DNA from: Candidatus Bathyarchaeia archaeon
Lineage (GTDB): Archaea > Thermoproteota > Bathyarchaeia > Bathyarchaeales > DTEX01
Direction of reading: 5' to 3'
Length of the DNA stretch: 64,000 nucleotides
Assembly: GCA_038882715.1 (NCBI GenBank)
Contig: JAVZNR010000001.1
Location: 14,313 to 78,312, forward strand
Position numbers and translations under genes: made by a program. Under the pieces are notes generated by a model. It saw only the letters and a list, made by a program, of their open reading frames with translations. It made no database searches and was not told where the DNA came from. Shown piece by piece: positions 13,631-39,798 of this stretch; the first letter of the stretch is position 1; each line of letters begins with the position of its first letter.

Positions 13631-13792
13631 TTAACCTATTCTCCTGAACATGTTTTTTGAGGCCCCGCATATTGGGCAAACCCAGTTGTCCGGCAACTCC
13701 TTGAATGGTGTTCCCGGCGCTATATTTTGGGTTGAGTCGCCTATCTCTGGGTCGTAGATGTAGCCGCAGATCCGGCACTCCCACTTATCCAA
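13631..13792 (-). CDS. Rubredoxin (53 aa, below the ORF-track cutoff)
   Basis: Manual translation from TTG: MDKWECRICGYIYDPEIGDSTQNIAPGTPFKELPDNWVCPICGASKNMFRRIG*; two CxxC motifs. Confidence 0.95.
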   Translation of the reverse strand: MDKWECRICGYIYDPEIGDSTQNIAPGTPFKELPDNWVCPICGASKNMFRRIG

Positions 13793-13824
13793 TTTTCAGC
13801 CCCCAATCTAGGTTATAACATGCT

Positions 13825-14325
13825 TTAGAATTTCTTTATTTTATCCCTAGTGGCGCCGCATATTGGGCATCTGTCAAGTTCTTCTTCCGACGTGTAGCCG
13901 CACACGCTACATATGTATATTGCTTCCAGCGATATGTCTTTGCCGCTTTCAACGGATTGCTTAGCCCTCTGATACATTGCCGCATGGATCTTCTCCGCCT
14001 GCAGAGCCCACTTAGTCGTCCTCTGGGCGCCCCTCTCATCCTGTAGCTTAGCAACAGCGTTATACGCCGGATACATTTCGTTAACCTCATAGGTTTCTCC
14101 GTTTATAGCCTCCTGAAGGTTATCCGCTGTACTGCGAATCATTCCCAAAACACTGTAATGGTTAGCGGCGTGAACCTGCTCAGCGTACGCTATGGCCCTA
14201 AATAGCCTAGCAACATTCCTAAACCCATCTTCCTCAGCCTTCTCTGCGAAAATCAGGTAACGCATATGCGCTTGGCTTTCCCCGGCGAAAGCGCTCTTTA
14301 AATTATCTTCAGTCATCTTTCTCAT
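13825..14325 (-). CDS. rbr: Rubrerythrin
   Basis: AFAGESQA, EQVHA, GETYE, EKIHA di-iron ligands; C-terminal CSVCGY..CPICG. Confidence 0.94.
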   Translation of the reverse strand: MRKMTEDNLKSAFAGESQAHMRYLIFAEKAEEDGFRNVARLFRAIAYAEQVHAANHYSVLGMIRSTADNLQEAINGETYEVNEMYPAYNAVAKLQDERGAQRTTKWALQAEKIHAAMYQRAKQSVESGKDISLEAIYICSVCGYTSEEELDRCPICGATRDKIKKF

Positions 14326-14430
14326 GTATATAATTCCTCCATAACCTCACAATAAATTTATTATTCTGTATTAAATTTAAAAGTTTTATGTGTGTTTTTC
14401 GGATAAAAAATAGTTAAATAATGAATTAAG

Positions 14431-14871
14431 GTGAAGGAAAGTATGGTGGATAATACTGATTTAGCAATCCTAAAGATCTTGCAGAAAGATGCTAGCGTAT
14501 CTTTCACTGAGATTGCTCATCAGCTTAAGGTAAGTGAGTCCACTGTTAGAAAGAGAGTGGAGAAGATGAGGCAGGAAGGTGTTATAAAGAGGTTCACGGT
14601 TATAGTTGAGCCCTCTAAGATAGGTTTTAACGTTATTGCGATAGTTGGCATAGACGTTGAGCCTTCAAAGATTCTAGAGGTGTCCCAGAAGCTATGTGAG
14701 CTGCCCGAGACAAGATATGTGGCTACTTCCACAGGAGACCACATGATTATGGTTGAGGTGTGGGCTAAAGATACAAGGGATTTAATGAGAATAATATCGG
14801 AGCGAATAGGCGCAATAGACGGCGTTAAAAGAGTTTGCCCCTCAATAATATCGGAGAAACTTAAAGAATAG
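14431..14871 (+). CDS. Lrp/AsnC family transcriptional regulator
   Basis: DLAILKILQKDASVSFTEIA..LKVSESTVRKRVEKM..GVIKRF HTH plus RAM domain. Confidence 0.92.
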   Translation: MKESMVDNTDLAILKILQKDASVSFTEIAHQLKVSESTVRKRVEKMRQEGVIKRFTVIVEPSKIGFNVIAIVGIDVEPSKILEVSQKLCELPETRYVATSTGDHMIMVEVWAKDTRDLMRIISERIGAIDGVKRVCPSIISEKLKE

Positions 14872-14937
14872 TTAGCGGAACGCTAATATTGTAGTCTAAG
14901 ACTCTATTATTGTTTATCGTCCCGTAGCGGAGGACAG

Positions 14938-15429
14938 TTGGTGGAAAATTTGACCGTGAAAGATGATTTGCTGGATTTTATTAGGAAACAGATCACTGTT
15001 GAGAATGAAATTGTGAAGTCTCTCAACGAAGCCCTACAGGATATGCAAAACCCGGCCGTTAAAGGGGTTTTGAGGGGGATATCCCTAGACTCCGCTAAGC
15101 ACACAGACATGTATGCCTCAGCCCTAACGCTTTTAACAACAGCGCCGCAGGCCCTTTCGCAGGAGCAGCTTGATAGGCATAGAATGGTTGTGGAGAAGCA
15201 TATACGGATAGAGGCCGAGCTAATAGAGAAGATTAACAGCATTCTACCTACTGTGGAGAACGAGAAGGTTAAGCTACTCCTAACAGCTATATTAGAGGAT
15301 GAGAAAAGGCATCACGCACTCCTAAAACAGGTTCTGGAGATCATTGTTCGCGGAGAAACAATAACTGAAGACGAGTGGTGGGATATAGTGTGGAAAAGCA
15401 CACCATTTCATGGAGCCCCCGGAGGATAG
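14938..15429 (+). CDS. Ferritin-like four-helix-bundle protein
   Basis: Helical; DSAKH and EDEKRHH ligand-like motifs; lies in redox cluster. Confidence 0.7.
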   Translation: MVENLTVKDDLLDFIRKQITVENEIVKSLNEALQDMQNPAVKGVLRGISLDSAKHTDMYASALTLLTTAPQALSQEQLDRHRMVVEKHIRIEAELIEKINSILPTVENEKVKLLLTAILEDEKRHHALLKQVLEIIVRGETITEDEWWDIVWKSTPFHGAPGG

Positions 15430-15506
15430 GATGAAAATAATCCGGGAGTTGATGTAAAGTATTTAAGCGAATACATAAATATATTTAAGGTAAAGGAGGT
15501 AAAAAT

Positions 15507-15926
15507 TTGGCTTCCAAAGAACTTCTGGATTTATTGAATGATGCTATAGCGCGCGAACTTCAGGTATCCATACAATACATATGGCAGCACGTCCAGTGGA
15601 GCGGCGTTAAGGGCTTCGCCGTCCAAGAGGAGTTGAAGAAGATAGCCATAACCGAGATGAAGCATGCTGAAGCTATAGCGGAAAGGCTTGTCTATTTAGG
15701 CGGCACCCCAACAACTAAGCCTTCAGAAATATTTGTGGGGAAGACGCTGAAAGAGATGATTGAGCGGGACGTGAAAGACGAGGAGAACGCGATAAAACTC
15801 TATAAAATAATAATAGAGAAGGCTCGCAAAGAAAACGATGTAACAACGGCAGTTCTATTCGAAGGAATACTAAAGGATGAAGAAGAACACCACGACTTCT
15901 TCACAACACTCCTAGAAGAAATCTAA
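15507..15926 (+). CDS. Short bacterioferritin-like protein
   Basis: ARELQVSIQY, ITEMKHAEAIAERL..LGG.P, DEENAIKLY, DEEEHH ferroxidase-type ligands. Confidence 0.85.
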   Translation: MASKELLDLLNDAIARELQVSIQYIWQHVQWSGVKGFAVQEELKKIAITEMKHAEAIAERLVYLGGTPTTKPSEIFVGKTLKEMIERDVKDEENAIKLYKIIIEKARKENDVTTAVLFEGILKDEEEHHDFFTTLLEEI

Positions 15927-16028
15927 AATAGATTCCCGTCAAACTCAATCCAATTTTTTCCTCTTATTCTCAAAATTATTGTAAGGCTTAAATTAACAGT
16001 TTTCCTTAAAAGGTATTGTGGTGAAATT

Positions 16029-16403
16029 ATGGCGAGCGTGCTGGATGTTGATGCTGAGGACTGGGAAAGAGAGGTTTTACAGTCCGACATATTAACCGTT
16101 GTGGATTTCTGGCATGAGAGGTGCCCATGGTGCATTAGGCTGAACCCGGTCTTCGAGGAGGTTGCTGAGGAGTATAGGGATAGGGCAAAATTCGTGAGAT
16201 TCAACGTGCTTAAGAGCCCTAGGAATAGGGATATAGCGATTAGAAACGGCGTTATGGGTACGCCCACAATCGCCTTCTACTGCAGCGGCAGACATATCAG
16301 CTCAATAGTCGGCTTTGTTCCAAAAGCCCACCTAAAACATGTTATTGAGGATATAATGGAGCGCTATAGAGAATGCGTCAAACAAAGCACGAAACTAGAG
16401 TAA
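16029..16403 (+). CDS. Thioredoxin family protein
   Basis: VVDFWHERCPWC, GVMGTPT cis-Pro loop. Confidence 0.9.
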   Translation: MASVLDVDAEDWEREVLQSDILTVVDFWHERCPWCIRLNPVFEEVAEEYRDRAKFVRFNVLKSPRNRDIAIRNGVMGTPTIAFYCSGRHISSIVGFVPKAHLKHVIEDIMERYRECVKQSTKLE

Positions 16404-34738: not shown

Positions 34739-34816
34739 AGCGGGGTGGGGTAGCCAGGTTAACCCGCTGGGCTCATAACCCAGAGATCGGTCGTTCAAAT
34801 CGACCCCCCGCTACCA
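34739..34816 (+). tRNA. Initiator tRNA-Met(CAU); CCA encoded
   Basis: AGCGGGG/CCCCGCT with A1-U72, anticodon stem CTGGG/CCCAG with three G-C pairs, loop CT-CAT-AA, T-arm GGTCG-TTCAAAT-CGACC. Confidence 0.96.
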
Positions 34817-34817
34817 T
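34790..34817 (+). repeat. attL core (tRNA 3' end) GTCGTTCAAATCGACCCCCCGCTACCAT
   Basis: Matches 39125-39148 apart from a 4-nt deletion there. Confidence 0.85.
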
Positions 34818-34822
34818 GTCTT

Positions 34823-34837
34823 TTGCGAGAGGTCGTA
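34823..34837 (+). repeat. Left inverted arm repeat TTGCGAGAGGTCGTA
   Basis: 14/15 identical to the reverse complement of 39092-39106. Confidence 0.75.
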
Positions 34838-34848
34838 CAACCCCAAAA

Positions 34849-35634
34849 CTAAGCCTTTTCAGACTTCTCTTCAAGTTGCTTAAGTTTTTCACGTGTCTTT
34901 TCCAGTCTCTCTGCAATCTGCCTCTTTTTCGTTTCCTGTTTTGCCTTTTCTCTTACTGCTTTGATGTTCTCTTCTAATGCTATATACCATGCCTGTTTTT
35001 TGATGCTTTCAAAGCTGAATAATTCGAAGAGCTGCTTTTCAGTCTCCTTTATGTCTAAGCTTTCCCGCTTGAATGGTAGGTCCGCGTTCATCAAAAACGC
35101 TATTAAGAGTTGTTGTAAATATGGTATCAACCAATCTCGTATATGCCCATAAAGCTTTTCGTTCGCGATCTCACCTATTTTTATCGCTTCCCTCAACATT
35201 TCTTCCGCGCTCTTTTTGTCTCCCTCCTCCACAACCCCAGCCTCCTTGAACGCGGAGAAGACAGAGTCCCAAAAGAAGTAGAGTAACATTTGTTTGATGC
35301 CAGCCATATTGAAGTCAATGAAATTAATGAAAGCAGCCGTTCTCTTTTCTGTGTTATCGATTGCTGTGATCTCCAAACCGAAAAACGGAATCCTAACAAG
35401 AAAGCGCTTAAACATTCTCTTTCCGTTGTCGAGCTTCTCAAGCGGTCGGAAAACTTGAGGTAGACGGTATTTTCCCTCCTCCCGAAACAACACACCCTCC
35501 TTCTCCAAATTATACAGATACTCGCTCAATGACGGAGAAGACAAACCGGTTGCCTTCTTTAGCTCAGTAAACGTTAACCCATCCTTGGCCCCAGCAAGGA
35601 CAAGCAATATTTTCATCTCGCCCGGCTTAAACAT
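34849..35634 (-). CDS. Winged-helix transcriptional regulator (putative element repressor)
   Basis: N-terminal LTFTELKKATGLSSPSLSEYLYNLEKEGVL wHTH; unknown C-terminal domain; SD GGTGAG. Confidence 0.7.
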   Translation of the reverse strand: MFKPGEMKILLVLAGAKDGLTFTELKKATGLSSPSLSEYLYNLEKEGVLFREEGKYRLPQVFRPLEKLDNGKRMFKRFLVRIPFFGLEITAIDNTEKRTAAFINFIDFNMAGIKQMLLYFFWDSVFSAFKEAGVVEEGDKKSAEEMLREAIKIGEIANEKLYGHIRDWLIPYLQQLLIAFLMNADLPFKRESLDIKETEKQLFELFSFESIKKQAWYIALEENIKAVREKAKQETKKRQIAERLEKTREKLKQLEEKSEKA

Positions 35635-35642
35635 ACATTCTC

Positions 35643-35700
35643 ACCTAACTTAGTTAACCAACTAACTTATATATAACCTTTTCCTATCATTAAGTTAGGT
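35643..35700. promoter_or_regulatory. Divergent promoter with palindromic TATA box and CTAACTTA repeats
   Basis: TTATATATAA at 35667-35676; ACCTAACTTA 35643-35652 inverted at 35691-35700; extra CTAACTTA 35662-35669. Confidence 0.7.
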
Positions 35701-35713
35701 AGGTGACTAACAA

Positions 35714-35896
35714 ATGATCAGGTCAATCTACATACCTGATGGGGTTGCCAAGCTCATTGATGAGGCAGCCAGAAAACTCGGCATGAGCCATTCCCGATTC
35801 ATTCAATATTGTGTGCTCCATGTGCTTGGGGAAATAAACATGCTGACCGCGAAAGTGCATGAGGAGGATTCAGAAAATGGAGTCTATCCCTGGTGA
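35714..35896 (+). CDS. Ribbon-helix-helix (CopG-like) DNA-binding protein
   Basis: RSIYIPDGVAKLIDEAARKLGMSHSRFIQYCV fits the RHH pattern; SD AGGTGA. Confidence 0.75.
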   Translation: MIRSIYIPDGVAKLIDEAARKLGMSHSRFIQYCVLHVLGEINMLTAKVHEEDSENGVYPW

Positions 35897-36425
35897 GTGT
35901 TTCGGATTCTTTGGCATGCCCGCATGGCCCAATGAATGTGAAAAATGCGAAGCTAAAGAGCTCTGCAAATACACAGCTAAGCACTTTGTCCCAAAGAAAA
36001 AGTTGCAACCTATATTTCAACGCCTGCTTGCGCTTGAAAAAAGTATGGGGGAGAGGATCATTGATGAGCTTTTGCGGGGGCTTGCTGATTTGTGTGCTTC
36101 TCTCGAAGAGTCTTTTAAGCAATTTCGAGAGAAGGTAGCCGCGCTTGCCCTTGAGGCAACCGCATGGAAAACCCTTCTCGCACCATCTCCAATCGATCCC
36201 AACGACCGCGCTTTTCGCTGGCTGATTGAGAAGTGTTTGCCGGAGGTCGCCCGGAAGCACCCTGAAGTGCGATGGGACTTGATCAAAACCGAGAACGGCA
36301 AGATTGCGGGGTTGCGGTATTTCTGTCAAGACCAAGAAACGGAAAATGACATAGTCAAGCCAACCACTTGGAGTTTCGAGGTTGCATGCAATCGGCCCTT
36401 AGCCGATAGCAAAAACAAAAAGTAA
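35859..36425 (+). CDS. Hypothetical element protein with Cys-rich N-terminus; likely start 35877
   Basis: ECFG....ECEKCEAKELC motif, then helical region; co-oriented in the element operon. Confidence 0.55.
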   Translation: MRRIQKMESIPGECFGFFGMPAWPNECEKCEAKELCKYTAKHFVPKKKLQPIFQRLLALEKSMGERIIDELLRGLADLCASLEESFKQFREKVAALALEATAWKTLLAPSPIDPNDRAFRWLIEKCLPEVARKHPEVRWDLIKTENGKIAGLRYFCQDQETENDIVKPTTWSFEVACNRPLADSKNKK

Positions 36426-36436
36426 GGGGGCACTTT

Positions 36437-36601
36437 ATGCAGATCGAGCGATACGAGGATTTTTGGCGGCTTTGCGAGAACTGTCCCAACTTCCATTTTG
36501 GTTGCGCTTTGAAATGCGAGCTTAGAATCCGTTTGAAGCTGCCCCCGCACGGACCGAAATACATCTTTAGCGGGAGCGTGAGCGAGGATGAAATGTCTTA
36601 G
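36437..36601 (+). CDS. Small Cys-rich hypothetical protein (54 aa; not in ORF track)
   Basis: MQIERYEDFWRLCENCPNFHFGCALKCELRIRLKLPPHGPKYIFSGSVSEDEMS*; GGGGG SD; overlaps ATPase start. Confidence 0.55.
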   Translation: MQIERYEDFWRLCENCPNFHFGCALKCELRIRLKLPPHGPKYIFSGSVSEDEMS

Positions 36602-38096
36602 ATGTCTGGCCGATGTTCCTGATGGCGCGGCAGTCTGTCCTAAATGCGGGGGAACCGTTTTCTCTGGCTCTGAAAGCGGGGAGCCTCTCCGTAATGTTGT
36701 GCAGCTTTACAGCACCCCCCTCCCCTTTTATGTTAAGGCAAAGACACCTATTGTTGTTAATGGCGAGTTAAAAGGATTCGAGGTTGAATGGAAACTATTC
36801 CGCGCGCGCCTACAGTTGAATGCCCCAAGCATATTTCTCTGGGACCGGGACGGCTACCTGCCCGGGAAGCAGGAAGCAGCCCTCCACCTCGTTGAAGGAG
36901 AGGACCTAATGCAGATTCTTCAGACTTTACCAAAGAAGAAAATAGAGGAAATATTAAGGGTTTTACGGGAAGAATGGGGCGTTGTAGCTGATGACAAGAA
37001 TAATCCTATTGAAGTTATAGCATCCTATCCCCTCTTCTTCCAGCCGGTTCCAAAGCTCCGTGATCCAAGCATTTTGGAACGCATGGACTGGCGAGAATAT
37101 ATTTATCGTCTCGCCTGCCCCAAGCCTGGGAAGGATGAAACTTTAATAAAGGTTCACCTAGCGAAAATCCTGCAGCCGTTAGCGATGCAGTATGCCCCGC
37201 ATAGCATTGAAGTTACTAATTCAGGCACCGGGAAAACTCGGTTCTATGATGCCGCGGGCATCAAGATTGACAAGGCTACGAGGCGGGCTGTTTTAGGCTT
37301 CGCGAAAAGCCCCACGGAAGTTTATCCCGGAACCGTGCATGGCTCCACTTTGCCTACAGCCTTCGATCAGATTGAAGCGCAAGATAGTCTTGAACTGGCG
37401 AAATATATGCTCGATTTGATGGAAATTGGACGTGCTTTAGTGGATTCTGGCGGCGTCAGGTTTGTTGTTGAAACCGGTTCCAGCTTCGCATACCTAGGGA
37501 ACCCGATCGCTAAAGATGCTAAGGCGGTGGAGGGCTTCAAAACGCTTCTAACCCATATTTGTGCTAACCCAGCTATGGGCCGGAGATTCGGACTAATCAT
37601 CTTCTCAACCAATCTTAAGGCAATTCAGGGGCAGGCGCGGATGACCCTCAAAGAGCTGGAAGAATGGAAAAGAAGTTTTGTTTTGTTCCGTGCTGTGGAG
37701 GAATACGCCCAGCCCAGGCTCAGGCGCTTGATACGTGATCCAAAGGTTGCGGAGTGGCTTCACCAGCCGATCAAAGGCTATAGGGAAACAATTTATATCA
37801 TTGCAGGTAGTTTCCGGGTGATGGATAGTTTTTCTATCCATCTATTTGAGGAGCTTCTCGAATGCCTTGCGTATCTCGCTTATCTGCCTCTTTATCTCAG
37901 TTATTTCGTCTCTAAGAGACTTGTTCTCTTCCTCAAGCTGGCTTATCCGCTCCCTTGCCTCATGGTTCATTATTTTAACGGCTGGGACCTCTTTGAGGAA
38001 AGTTACGGTTGGCAGGACCTTGAGGTATTCGCTTCTCAGCCACTCAATGTTGCTTATGCAGAAGTCGTAGAGGCTTTCAACCCCAAACTTCGTTAG
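36588..38096 (+). CDS. Divergent MCM/BrxL-like AAA+ ATPase (putative replicative helicase) with N-terminal Zn ribbon; probably 3'-truncated near 37810
   Basis: CxxC/CxxC N-terminus; Walker A TNSGTGKT; Walker B AFDQIE; LMEIGRALVDSGGVRFVVETGSSFAYLGNP (PS1 hairpin/sensor 1); Arg finger GRRFGLIIF. Confidence 0.7.
   Translation: MKCLRCLADVPDGAAVCPKCGGTVFSGSESGEPLRNVVQLYSTPLPFYVKAKTPIVVNGELKGFEVEWKLFRARLQLNAPSIFLWDRDGYLPGKQEAALHLVEGEDLMQILQTLPKKKIEEILRVLREEWGVVADDKNNPIEVIASYPLFFQPVPKLRDPSILERMDWREYIYRLACPKPGKDETLIKVHLAKILQPLAMQYAPHSIEVTNSGTGKTRFYDAAGIKIDKATRRAVLGFAKSPTEVYPGTVHGSTLPTAFDQIEAQDSLELAKYMLDLMEIGRALVDSGGVRFVVETGSSFAYLGNPIAKDAKAVEGFKTLLTHICANPAMGRRFGLIIFSTNLKAIQGQARMTLKELEEWKRSFVLFRAVEEYAQPRLRRLIRDPKVAEWLHQPIKGYRETIYIIAGSFRVMDSFSIHLFEELLECLAYLAYLPLYLSYFVSKRLVLFLKLAYPLPCLMVHYFNGWDLFEESYGWQDLEVFASQPLNVAYAEVVEAFNPKLR
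37820..37842. terminator. Perfect 9-bp hairpin GATGGATAG-TTTTT-CTATCCATC at the integrase stop
   Basis: Inverted repeat seen directly; function inferred. Confidence 0.45.
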
Positions 38097-39047
38097 GCTG
38101 TGGCCCAGAAAAGCTTCGCTCGCCATTCTGTCAACCCCGCTTATGCTACACGCCGTCTTGAAGAACTTCCTCAGGGAGTGGATGCGCGTGTTGTAACGAA
38201 CCGCGTTATTATTCACGCTTTTTCCTCCAGCAACCTTATGGATGCCTTTTATTGGAACCGGCCGCATGTCAAGTCCCGCTTTATTGCATAGCTCACGCCA
38301 AATGTTCTCAAACCTCTTGCCTGTCAGAGCCCGCCCTCCCCTTTCAGCCGCAAAGATAGGTGTTTCAGCCGTTATCTGCTCTCCCCTCCCCTGCCTCATG
38401 ATCAGGTGTGTTCTAATGTAGTCTGCCGCCTCCGCGGAGATGAACGTCACATACGGCTCCCTCTCCTTATTCAGGTTCTCAGGGATCTCGACGGCATAGC
38501 ACGGCAAATCTATGTTGAAGACATCATCCCGAAAATGCTTTAGGCGGAGCCCGAGGCATGTGCTTAACCTGAAGCCTCCGCTCGCCATAGCACATATAAT
38601 CGCCCTCTCCCTAAGCTCAGCCACCTTGAGAAGCCTAACAATCTCCTCTTTACTCACAACATCGCGTTTAAGGAGGGGTTTAACCGAACCGAACTTCCGC
38701 TTAAACTCCCTCGCAATCTCCCTGCTAACCCTATCAACGCCTCGAACTCCATTCTCAACCAGCCAGGCCTTTATGCCTGGAAGCCAACCCCAAGCGCTTT
38801 TGGGAGCCACACGATCCTTAGCCCAGGCAAAGAAGCCGCTAAACTCCTCAACAATCTCATCCTCATTAAGCCTCTTAAAACGCTCAAGAACCTCAGAAGG
38901 CCTGAGACCATAATATTCGCAAAAGAACTTTAAGCCTTTAACATAGTTTTTCGGAGTCTCCCCGCTTAGACTCCTCTTTGAGAGCATAACCTGCACGGTT
39001 GGATCGGAGAGAATATCCTTTATAATTATTTTAGGCTTCTCAGACAT
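37842..39047 (-). CDS. int: Tyrosine recombinase/integrase
   Basis: Catalytic set: SGGFRLS (R), LNK (K), HSLRKFF (HxxR), FLGH, LYD (Y); SAM-like N-terminus; C-terminal coiled coil; next to attR. Confidence 0.93.
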   Translation of the reverse strand: MSEKPKIIIKDILSDPTVQVMLSKRSLSGETPKNYVKGLKFFCEYYGLRPSEVLERFKRLNEDEIVEEFSGFFAWAKDRVAPKSAWGWLPGIKAWLVENGVRGVDRVSREIAREFKRKFGSVKPLLKRDVVSKEEIVRLLKVAELRERAIICAMASGGFRLSTCLGLRLKHFRDDVFNIDLPCYAVEIPENLNKEREPYVTFISAEAADYIRTHLIMRQGRGEQITAETPIFAAERGGRALTGKRFENIWRELCNKAGLDMRPVPIKGIHKVAGGKSVNNNAVRYNTRIHSLRKFFKTACSISGVDRMASEAFLGHSLTKFGVESLYDFCISNIEWLRSEYLKVLPTVTFLKEVPAVKIMNHEARERISQLEEENKSLRDEITEIKRQISEIRKAFEKLLK

Positions 39048-39091: not shown

Positions 39092-39106
39092 TACGACCTC
39101 CCGCAA
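39092..39106 (-). repeat. Right inverted arm repeat TACGACCTCCCGCAA
   Basis: Reverse complement matches 34823-34837 at 14/15. Confidence 0.75.
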
Positions 39107-39124: not shown

Positions 39125-39148
39125 GTCGTTCAAATCCCCCGCTACCAT
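39125..39148 (+). repeat. attR core GTCGTTCAAAT[4-nt deletion]CCCCCGCTACCAT
   Basis: Copy of tRNA-iMet 3' end lacking CGAC. Confidence 0.82.
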
Positions 39149-39318
39149 ATAAACTTTTTCGTACAACCGACCGCAACTTTTAGAAAGCCCGTTCCTTTTT
39201 CCCAGATATACTCACAAGCGGGCGCGTTACTTCTACCATGAAATTCATAGGATTTAAATCAACATATATGCCGATCGGAGCAAAATATTTTTAAGCGTGT
39301 TGAGAGAACAAGAGTTGG

Positions 39319-39798
39319 GTGTTGAGGTTGCCTTTTTGTAGGCAGTGTGGGAGAGAGGTTTCTCAGGATGCTAGGTTTTGCCCTTATTGTGGTGCGGATC
39401 AAACCTCTTATGCGTCGCCTTACTCGCCTTCGGTTCAGGCCGGGTTGGAGACTAAGAATACGGGTTTAGCGGCGGTTTTAGCTTTAGTGTTCGGTGTCTT
39501 TGGGCTGTGGGGCGTGGGGCATATATATGTTGGAAAGATAGGTAGAGGATTAGCTATACTTGTGCTAGGCATTATACTTCAATGGGTTCTCGGCTTCTTC
39601 ATATTCTTCGGAATAATATTCGGCGGAATATACGGGGGGCGCCCATTTGGATTATCCCTGTTACTTGGAGGCTTTGCCGGGTTAATTATTTGGGCGCTGG
39701 TAACCATCGCTCTCTTCATTTGGCAGATCTACGACGCATATAAACTAGCTAAATATTATAACGACCATGTTCGACAGCATGGCAAGGCGCCTTGGTAA
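39319..39798 (+). CDS. Zinc-ribbon membrane protein (TM2-like)
   Basis: FCRQCG..FCPYCG, then KNTGLAAVLA..GVGHIYVGKIGRG and TM helices. Confidence 0.75.
   Translation: MLRLPFCRQCGREVSQDARFCPYCGADQTSYASPYSPSVQAGLETKNTGLAAVLALVFGVFGLWGVGHIYVGKIGRGLAILVLGIILQWVLGFFIFFGIIFGGIYGGRPFGLSLLLGGFAGLIIWALVTIALFIWQIYDAYKLAKYYNDHVRQHGKAPW

Follow-up and report, generated by a model that had tools for sequence, protein, structure and literature searches.

A gene in a 64-kb stretch of contig JAVZNR010000001.1 from a Candidatus Bathyarchaeia archaeon (the whole of this stretch is called the window below) has very probably been truncated to the 5' 60% of its length. It would have encoded a highly divergent AAA+ helicase of the MCM type with a natural D-Q-h-E Walker B motif, and would have been left behind in the relic of an integrated element. 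More tentatively, the protein family to which it belongs, comprising at least 532 sequence clusters, may form an undescribed MCM-type branch confined to the mobile elements of uncultured hosts, Thermoproteota among them. Here the catalytic Glu would have moved from position +1 to position +3 after the Walker B Asp, with the move reversed or repeated several times. This wider proposal, drawn from a comparison of the sequences, is plausible rather than probable.

Motifs of the window protein and its homologues

The open reading frame (ORF) runs from 36588 to 38096 on the plus strand and encodes 502 amino acids (aa). Its homologous part, 36588..37796 (+), covers aa 1-403 and corresponds to residues 1-404 of the closest relative, P0001 (698 aa; its gene lies in L004, a short contig), with 88% aa identity over 403 codons and 81% nucleotide (nt) identity. 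These 403 residues take in a Zn ribbon at the N-terminus, then a beta-rich N-terminal domain and the alpha/beta core of the AAA+ ATPase, and reach into the start of the lid. The remainder, 37797..38096 (+), is a non-homologous read-through tail, antisense to an integrase gene from 37842 and foreign to the ancestral protein. A preliminary description of the gene, made from the DNA letters, had placed its end at 37810; this was near the true end of homology (nt 37796), and the truncation relative to relatives of roughly 700 aa had gone unnoticed.

All the motifs quoted in that description were found where it had placed them. The CxxC...CxxC zinc ribbon (CLRC, aa 3-6, and CPKC, aa 17-20; 36594..36647 (+)) gave a Pfam Zn_Ribbon_1 match under the cut-off (E=0.0044), and is kept by most, not all, family members. 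The Walker A motif or P-loop, TNSGTGKT (aa 210-217, 37215..37238 (+)), aligns with the MCM P-loop, and the Walker B motif AFDQIE (aa 258-263, with D260, Q261, I262 and E263; 37359..37376 (+)) aligns with the MCM I-D-E-x-D, the codon of Q261 being CAG, as had been reported. Between these two motifs, a beta-hairpin connecting beta2 and beta3 (LGFAKSPxEVYPG, 37296..37328 (+)) stands at the position of the MCM helix-2 insert. Helix 3, the pre-sensor-1 beta-hairpin and sensor 1 (…YLGNP) are contained in LMEIGRALVDSGGVRFVVETGSSFAYLGNP (aa 277-306, 37416..37505 (+)), which aligns with AMExQ…AAANP of MCM, and the arginine-finger motif GRRFGLIIF (aa 331-339, 37578..37604 (+)), the equivalent of the MCM SRFD, aligns with LLSRFDLIF. 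The ATPase of the window protein was not recognised by Pfam, NCBIfam, PADLOC or PHROGs, the sole Pfam signal being the sub-threshold Zn ribbon, and a phmmer search of the window protein against PDB sequences returned nothing useful.

A search of 5.8 billion proteins produced 57 homologues, mostly 640-800 aa long with about 700 aa typical, which match just the first 80-85% of the 502-aa ORF. They are annotated as 'hypothetical protein' in every source, and those with an organism name come mostly from metagenome-assembled genomes (MAGs) of Bathyarchaeia. An hmmsearch of 1.84 billion cluster representatives (clusters at 50% identity) gave 532 clusters at E<=1e-3 and 234 at E<=1e-30. In the alignment of 48 close family members (A1), whose lowest identities are about 28%, the invariant columns are the G and K of Walker A, the D-Q of Walker B, the sensor-1 N-P and the G-R-R of the finger, while E(+3) and the lid R-x-R (R428/R430) are nearly so. 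Because they are invariant in 48 homologues of such divergence, the motifs are not due to chance. In tblastn searches P0001 gave no match in the phage and plasmid collections, and tblastn of a Toprim-fused member, P0169, against phages matched with its primase part alone. Profiles of the family run against PDB sequences returned noise and marginal Lon matches at E>0.2.

Some members carry large insertions in the ATPase region. P0104 has a LAGLIDADG intein at residues ~186-604, placed exactly in the P-loop (…VGQ|CLPG…THN|TGKS…), and in P0145 an insert of about 345 aa (residues ~206-551) occupies the helix-2-insert hairpin.

Predicted fold and relation to MCM

The AlphaFold2 model of full-length P0001 (predicted local distance difference test score (pLDDT) 83.6, predicted TM-score (pTM) 0.72) contains, from the N- to the C-terminus, a beta-rich N-terminal domain, an alpha/beta core, a helical lid, a helix-helix-strand-strand (H-H-E-E) unit, a disordered linker and a Cys-rich tail. 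In a Foldseek search of this model against PDB the top 50 matches were all MCM, at E 1e-10 to 2e-9 and over 510-690 aligned columns. A model of the core alone (residues 196-450, pLDDT 89.9) likewise gave a PDB top 50 consisting entirely of MCM or MCM8/9, at E 3e-8 to 5e-7 and with TMq of 0.37-0.48. SF3 (superfamily 3) helicases, chelatases, Lon and packaging ATPases were absent from the PDB top 50 of either model. The fold search of an AlphaFold model, which the preliminary description had proposed as a check on its MCM assignment, thus returned MCM as the best match, and no ATPase of another kind came out on top.

Two hairpins of the P0001 model deserve mention, one between beta2 and beta3 at 238-248 (strands 238-242 and 245-248; 43-47 and 50-53 in the core model), the other between helix 3 and beta4 at 283-296 (strands 283-288 and 291-296, with beta4 at 301-305). 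From their position in the models and the register of the profile alignment given below, we infer that they are the MCM helix-2 insert and the pre-sensor-1 hairpin. The lid of the full-length relatives is helical and contains the nearly invariant R428/R430 as a candidate sensor 2, and the H-H-E-E unit, which is winged-helix-like, lies at 519-577 of the model.

For comparison at the profile level, six annotated viral MCMs from the phage collection were used; an MCM gene was sought in the window and in the related loci and none was found. With 64 diverse family members, hhalign gave a probability of 96.1% (E 3e-9, 167 columns), and the P-loop, the Walker B motif (D-Q/E-h-E against D-E-h-D), AMExQ...KAG against MExG...sGg, AANP against LGNP and SRFD against GRRF were all in register, as they had been aligned by eye in the preliminary description. 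The likeness to canonical MCM extends to the order of the parts, namely a beta-rich N-terminal domain with a Zn site, the AAA+ core, a helical lid and, towards the C-terminus, a unit that resembles a winged helix. It includes helix-2-insert-like and pre-sensor-1 hairpins, an equal spacing of the '..ANP' of sensor 1 and the 'xRF' of the finger, and an acidic residue at Walker B +3. In contrast to MCM, which has D-E-F-D and an SRF finger, the family has D-Q-h-E and a GRR finger. Its Zn ribbon lies at the extreme N-terminus (and is absent in some members), whereas that of MCM is inside the OB domain, and it has in addition a Cys-rich C-terminal tail and, as constant partner or fusion, a primase. 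The MCMs of archaeal viruses and plasmids that have been described so far are recent captures of the host MCM, at least as Krupovic (2010) is cited in PMC5862659; the present family, unlike these archaeal mobile-element MCMs, is not.

Several results weigh against the MCM assignment. When the profile was made from the close family only, hhalign against the six viral MCMs fell to 38% (37.8%), with Walker B off by three residues, and Pfam PF00493 was not matched by the window protein or P0001 at E<=1. The TM-scores are modest (0.23-0.48), the sequence identity to MCM is 10-19%, and MCM chains are very numerous in PDB, which inflates the finding that the top 50 are all MCM. Among the 64 diverse members, two weakly matched Pfam MCM (best E 0.0029) and two weakly matched MCM_WH_arc (0.029).

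Another described helicase with similarities is Cch (DUF927), a distant MCM-like helicase of staphylococcal SCCmec and of some thaumarchaeal and Methanococcales elements, which is thought to be a self-loading replicative helicase (PMC7581432, PMC6563490, PMC6972569). Like the present family, it is a divergent MCM-like AAA+ helicase of integrative elements, with a recombinase and a replication module adjoining. If the ATPase were of the Cch/DUF927 type, or an SF3 helicase (D5- or Rep-like) rather than a relative of MCM, this could explain some of the matches among viral models (BFVD), which at E 1e-7 to 1e-3 were to NrS-1-like helicases, to a DUF927 protein and to primase-helicases of the D5 type. 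Primase-helicase fusions, which the family also has, are typical of SF3, DUF927 and VirE proteins (PMC5862659), and archaeal elements are known to carry homologues of Cch (PMC6563490, PMC6972569). Such an assignment is nevertheless improbable. The PDB top 50 contained MCM alone for both models, and no Cch structure was among them. In BFVD the best match was an unnamed protein (1e-11), followed by crenarchaeal virus proteins, with the DUF927 protein a weaker match (2e-7). At E<=1 in Pfam, DUF927 was matched by none of the 64 members, and VirE, D5_N and Primase_Cterm were likewise unmatched, against the weak matches to MCM and MCM_WH_arc; the model also shows domains in an MCM-like order and a lid that is helical and contains a candidate sensor 2.

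The D-Q Walker B motif

Replacement of the Glu at Walker B +1 by Gln is a classic trap mutation in AAA+ proteins. On this ground the preliminary description had called the motif hydrolysis-dead and considered the protein either naturally D-Q or recently inactivated, a matter that an alignment of homologues was expected to settle. D-Q (D261-Q262) is invariant in 48 of the 48 close homologues, with a nearly invariant E(+3). This makes it a characteristic of the family rather than a sign of decay. The first alternative thus stands; as for the second, the window copy was almost certainly inactivated, as described below, but the cause is the truncation and not the Gln.

A wider census was made with 198 sequences aligned to the family hidden Markov model (HMM). 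Of the 120 sequences with Q(+1), about 118 carried E or D at +3 (DQIE, DQLE, DQVE, DQFE, EQhE and others). In a neighbour-joining tree, a [D/E]-Q-h-E clade with the GRR finger (126 sequences) was separated from a remote sister clade of 39 sequences, D-E-h-x, whose finger is GSR; residue +3 varies there, Q being the commonest (DEIQ, DEVQ, DELQ). There were reciprocal exceptions: P0125 (DEIQ) and P0106 (DEFQ) lie within the Q clade, and P0158 (DQAE) lies within the E clade, where its neighbours carry A, L or a gap at +3. Canonical MCM has E(+1) and D(+3) at the aligned positions, both invariant in the six viral MCMs. A search of the literature found neither the family nor any D-Q-x-E Walker B described.

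As the other catalytic motifs are conserved and Q(+1) co-varies with E(+3), the D-Q site is most likely not dead, the catalytic carboxylate having apparently moved from +1 to +3. In such a site the carboxylate would be supplied from +3, which is Asp in the MCM IDEFD and would here be lengthened to Glu. Q(+1) would retain a polar role, and ATP would still be hydrolysed. The claim of a hydrolysis-dead motif is accordingly unlikely to be correct for this family. What speaks against a moved carboxylate is that E(+3) aligns with a conserved Asp of MCM, and it may have a role unrelated to the replacement of E(+1).

The lack of Glu at +1 could also be explained if the whole family were hydrolysis-deficient and its members were not motors but switches that bind ATP, for example to bind an origin or to act as loaders, in the manner of some ORC/Cdc6 subunits. 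The well-known trapping effect of this very exchange and the invariance of Q in the near clade are in keeping with a switch, and the C-terminal winged-helix-like domain could bind an origin. Proteins that merely bind ATP tend to lose sensor 1, the arginine finger, sensor 2 and the Walker A K, whereas this family keeps all four invariant or nearly so, as the N of sensor 1, the R-R of the arginine finger, the R-x-R of the candidate sensor 2 and the K of Walker A. Furthermore, E(+3) accompanies Q(+1) nearly always, with swaps in both directions, both MCM-type DNA-translocation hairpins are retained, and the primase of the related elements has no other helicase beside it. A family of switches is unlikely on this evidence.

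Some short members, of about 440-600 aa, form a subclade with E-Q-h-E, in which Glu has taken the place of the Walker B Asp and both Q(+1) and E(+3) are retained. It is made up of P0107, P0115-P0117, P0126, P0136, P0137, P0144, P0146, P0147, P0150, P0154 and P0161.

Intact relatives and their primase partners

Full-length members were found in related loci with a common layout. In the longer contigs L001, L002 and L003 a gene of the winged helix-turn-helix (wHTH) type on the minus strand is followed by small ORFs, the ATPase gene and a primase gene that either overlaps the stop codon of the ATPase or nearly abuts it. In L004 the primase gene is likewise directly downstream of the ATPase gene. 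An integrase gene beside a tRNA gene completes the element in L001 (tRNA-Leu) and L003 (tRNA-Ala), with cargo genes before the integrase in L001 alone; no integrase or tRNA was found in L002. The downstream primase has the PriS domain PF01896 in four of four loci (L001-L004) and the PriL C-terminal domain PF04104 in three of them, with scores above or near the cut-offs. In other members the primase is part of the same polypeptide: an N-terminal Prim-Pol is fused in the long members P0082 (from a Thermoproteales MAG) and P0160, and a DnaG-type Zn ribbon with Toprim is fused in P0169, P0174 and P0188. A second helicase is not encoded beside the primase in the related elements L001-L003.

Since the ATPase is repeatedly fused to, or encoded beside, two unrelated kinds of primase, the family most likely provides the replicative helicase of mobile elements. 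The preliminary description had suggested a distinct clade of mobile-element replication helicases, and the synteny with primase genes, the fusions and the tRNA-integrated elements bear this out. The genes of the full-length relatives belong to small elements that integrate at tRNA genes in Bathyarchaeia and other Thermoproteota, and the rings of these proteins, presumably hexameric in view of the MCM fold, would unwind the DNA of the element so that the primase can prime it. The MCM fold also suggests that unwinding would proceed in the 3'-5' direction. A partner of PriS fused to the PriL C-terminal domain recalls the PolpTN2-type PriS-PriL fusion primase modules of archaeal plasmids (PMC3973330, PMC5862659). 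PolpTN2, however, describes the primase and not the helicase, and the primase gene of the window has been deleted.

The AAA+ core of BrxL is said to resemble MCM, and the preliminary description had likened the ATPase to BrxL as well as to MCM. That the protein serves in defence and not in replication, as an ATPase like BrxL or another of the BREX or MoxR type, is hardly tenable. The L001 element does carry methyltransferase and PLD-family cargo, which might be expected near a defence ATPase. No PADLOC match was obtained at E<=1, however, and the relatives of roughly 700 aa have no Lon-like protease domain in their sequences or models. No BREX genes are nearby in the window or in L001-L003, where the neighbours are primase, integrase and wHTH genes, and the ATPase is invariably paired with or fused to primases. 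BrxL was excluded by the lack of a PADLOC match, of a Lon-like domain and of a BREX context, so that only the MCM half of that comparison was kept. The L001 cargo, located at 13750-16223 between the primase and integrase genes, consists of an N6/N4 DNA methyltransferase gene and the PLD-family gene, and may represent restriction-modification or defence functions.

Truncation of the window copy

DNA homology to the L004 gene ends at nt 37795, and the protein alignment breaks after RETIY at aa 403, nt 37796. Residues 405-698 of the relatives and the downstream primase gave no tblastn match anywhere in the 64-kb window, and the difference is therefore due to a deletion and not to an insertion splitting the gene. 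Judged by this alignment, the window gene is the front 60% of the gene, and the C-terminal 294 residues are lost. The window copy has no Cys-rich tail and no winged-helix-like domain, it lacks the lid with its candidate sensor 2, and the gene of the partner primase is gone as well. Because the lid with the candidate sensor 2 is missing, the window copy is almost certainly non-functional as a helicase. The deletion would have taken residues 405-698 together with the primase and cargo genes, and would have brought what was left of the ATPase gene up against the integrase gene at its 3' flank. The ORF extends to 38096 only because the strand it reads there is antisense to that gene, 37842..39047(-).

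The retained part is well preserved. It keeps 59 of the 60 columns with >=90% conservation in the family and has no stop or frameshift in 403 codons, and the ratio of nonsynonymous to synonymous substitution rates (dN/dS) against L004 is 0.045, with dS saturated at 1.69. The low dN/dS means that either the truncation is recent relative to the divergence from L004, or the fragment is still constrained. In the latter case the 403-residue fragment could still be functional, for instance as a dominant-negative inhibitor of incoming related elements, and be kept by selection. The lack of internal decay counts against a plain relic, being compatible with a residual function of the fragment, and the ORF also retains its start, in an operon that is intact and with the partner gene upstream of it. 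With dS saturated, though, nearly all of the divergence can be older than the deletion. The tail of the ORF is antisense integrase sequence, and the sister genome L014 has no trace of the ATPase gene. Selection for the fragment is thus very doubtful. As the window may come from a metagenome assembly, it is also conceivable that the join at 37796 is chimeric, which would likewise tell against a truncated gene; the flanking att sites and the relic in L014, both described below, speak for a real element.

The integrated element at tRNA-Met

The truncated gene belongs to an element that is a 4.36-kb remnant between the tRNA-Met gene (attL) and a degenerate attR. The tRNA-Met (CAT) gene, the target of integration, was located by ARAGORN at 34739..34816 (+), and the attL core lies at 34790-34819. 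The attR at 39125..39150 (+) is a degenerate direct copy of the 3' end of tRNA-Met, with 25 of 26 aligned nt identical and one 4-nt gap. The pair was found by reading the sequence, as the 4-nt gap had hidden it from a direct-repeat finder. A tyrosine integrase and direct repeats derived from the 3' end of the tRNA, by which a tRNA-integrating archaeal element is recognised, are both present.

From attL to attR the genes follow in the order wHTH(-), ribbon-helix-helix (RHH), 188-aa ORF, 54-aa ORF, truncated ATPase and integrase(-). The wHTH gene (34849..35634 (-)) encodes a regulator of 261 aa (Pfam HTH_IclR 1.3e-6, also MarR_2 and TrmB) and is divergent from the replication operon; wHTH genes hold the same position in L001 and L002. 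On the plus strand it is followed by the gene for a 60-aa RHH protein (35714..35896 (+)), whose Pfam RHH_1 match (E=0.0043) was under the cut-off, and, in the same operon, by the 188-aa ORF (35859..36425 (+)), which has 36% identity to the upstream 172-aa gene of L004 and no Pfam match. The Cys-rich 54-aa ORF (36437..36601 (+)) overlaps the start codon of the helicase gene and has 94% aa identity to the 54-aa gene at the same position in L004, so that it is more conserved than the helicase (88%); its product may be a small zinc-binding partner protein. The integrase gene (37842..39047 (-)) encodes a tyrosine integrase of 401 aa that is apparently intact (Pfam Phage_integrase 3.4e-9, NCBIfam XerA-like 1.3e-8). 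The window element has probably lost the ability to replicate.

A 15-nt inverted repeat lies immediately within the two att sites, TTGCGAGAGGTCGTA at 34823..34837 and TACGACCTCCCGCAA at 39092..39106, the two arms being 93% complementary. The closest genome, L012 (97%-related), has the same 5' region of the integrase with 98.8% identity over 241 nt; there the 5' end of the integrase is joined via the 15-nt repeat to the 3' end of tRNA-Met in the opposite orientation (L012 1-330). The orientation of this junction, together with the inverted repeat inside both att sites, suggests that the interior of the element is inverted in the window relative to L012. A shorter relic is found at the same tRNA-Met in a sister Bathyarchaeia MAG (L014 4344-8251, JAGTQF010000004.1). 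Of the genes it keeps only those for the wHTH and RHH proteins, together with part of the 188-aa ORF, its homology to the window stopping at 36184, and it has neither the ATPase nor the integrase. Since the relics in the window and in L014 differ, the integration is old and has been eroding differently by lineage.

Some further features were noted in and around the element. In the 79-nt gap between the wHTH and RHH genes there is a 20-nt inverted repeat (35650-35669 and 35691-35710, 80% complementary, with a 21-nt spacer), which could be an operator or an origin-like site. Just outside attR, 39319-39798 (+) encodes a protein of 159 aa that has several hydrophobic segments and, at its N-terminus, a zinc ribbon (Pfam 5.4e-9); a similar zinc-ribbon/DUF6114 gene lies just outside the L003 element (15519-16013). 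The FGGY kinase flanking the element is 97% identical to one from a Bathyarchaeia MAG, which places the host in the Bathyarchaeia.

Significance

The instance in the window is itself the more modest part of the finding, being a truncated relic, a degraded copy of an MCM-type mobile-element helicase. The family as a whole is an unannotated replication module that no Pfam or NCBIfam model covers. The mobile elements of Bathyarchaeia and related archaea are poorly known, and recognition of the family would let annotators mark plasmid-like integrated elements in these organisms. The exchange of the Walker B Glu for Gln is routinely used as a 'dead' mutation in AAA+ motors. A natural family that has Q(+1) together with the other catalytic residues and E(+3) would amount to a natural experiment on the position of the catalytic base in an MCM-type site. 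If the proposed glutamate swap is true, it would show that a ring helicase can be active without the canonical hhhhDE arrangement.

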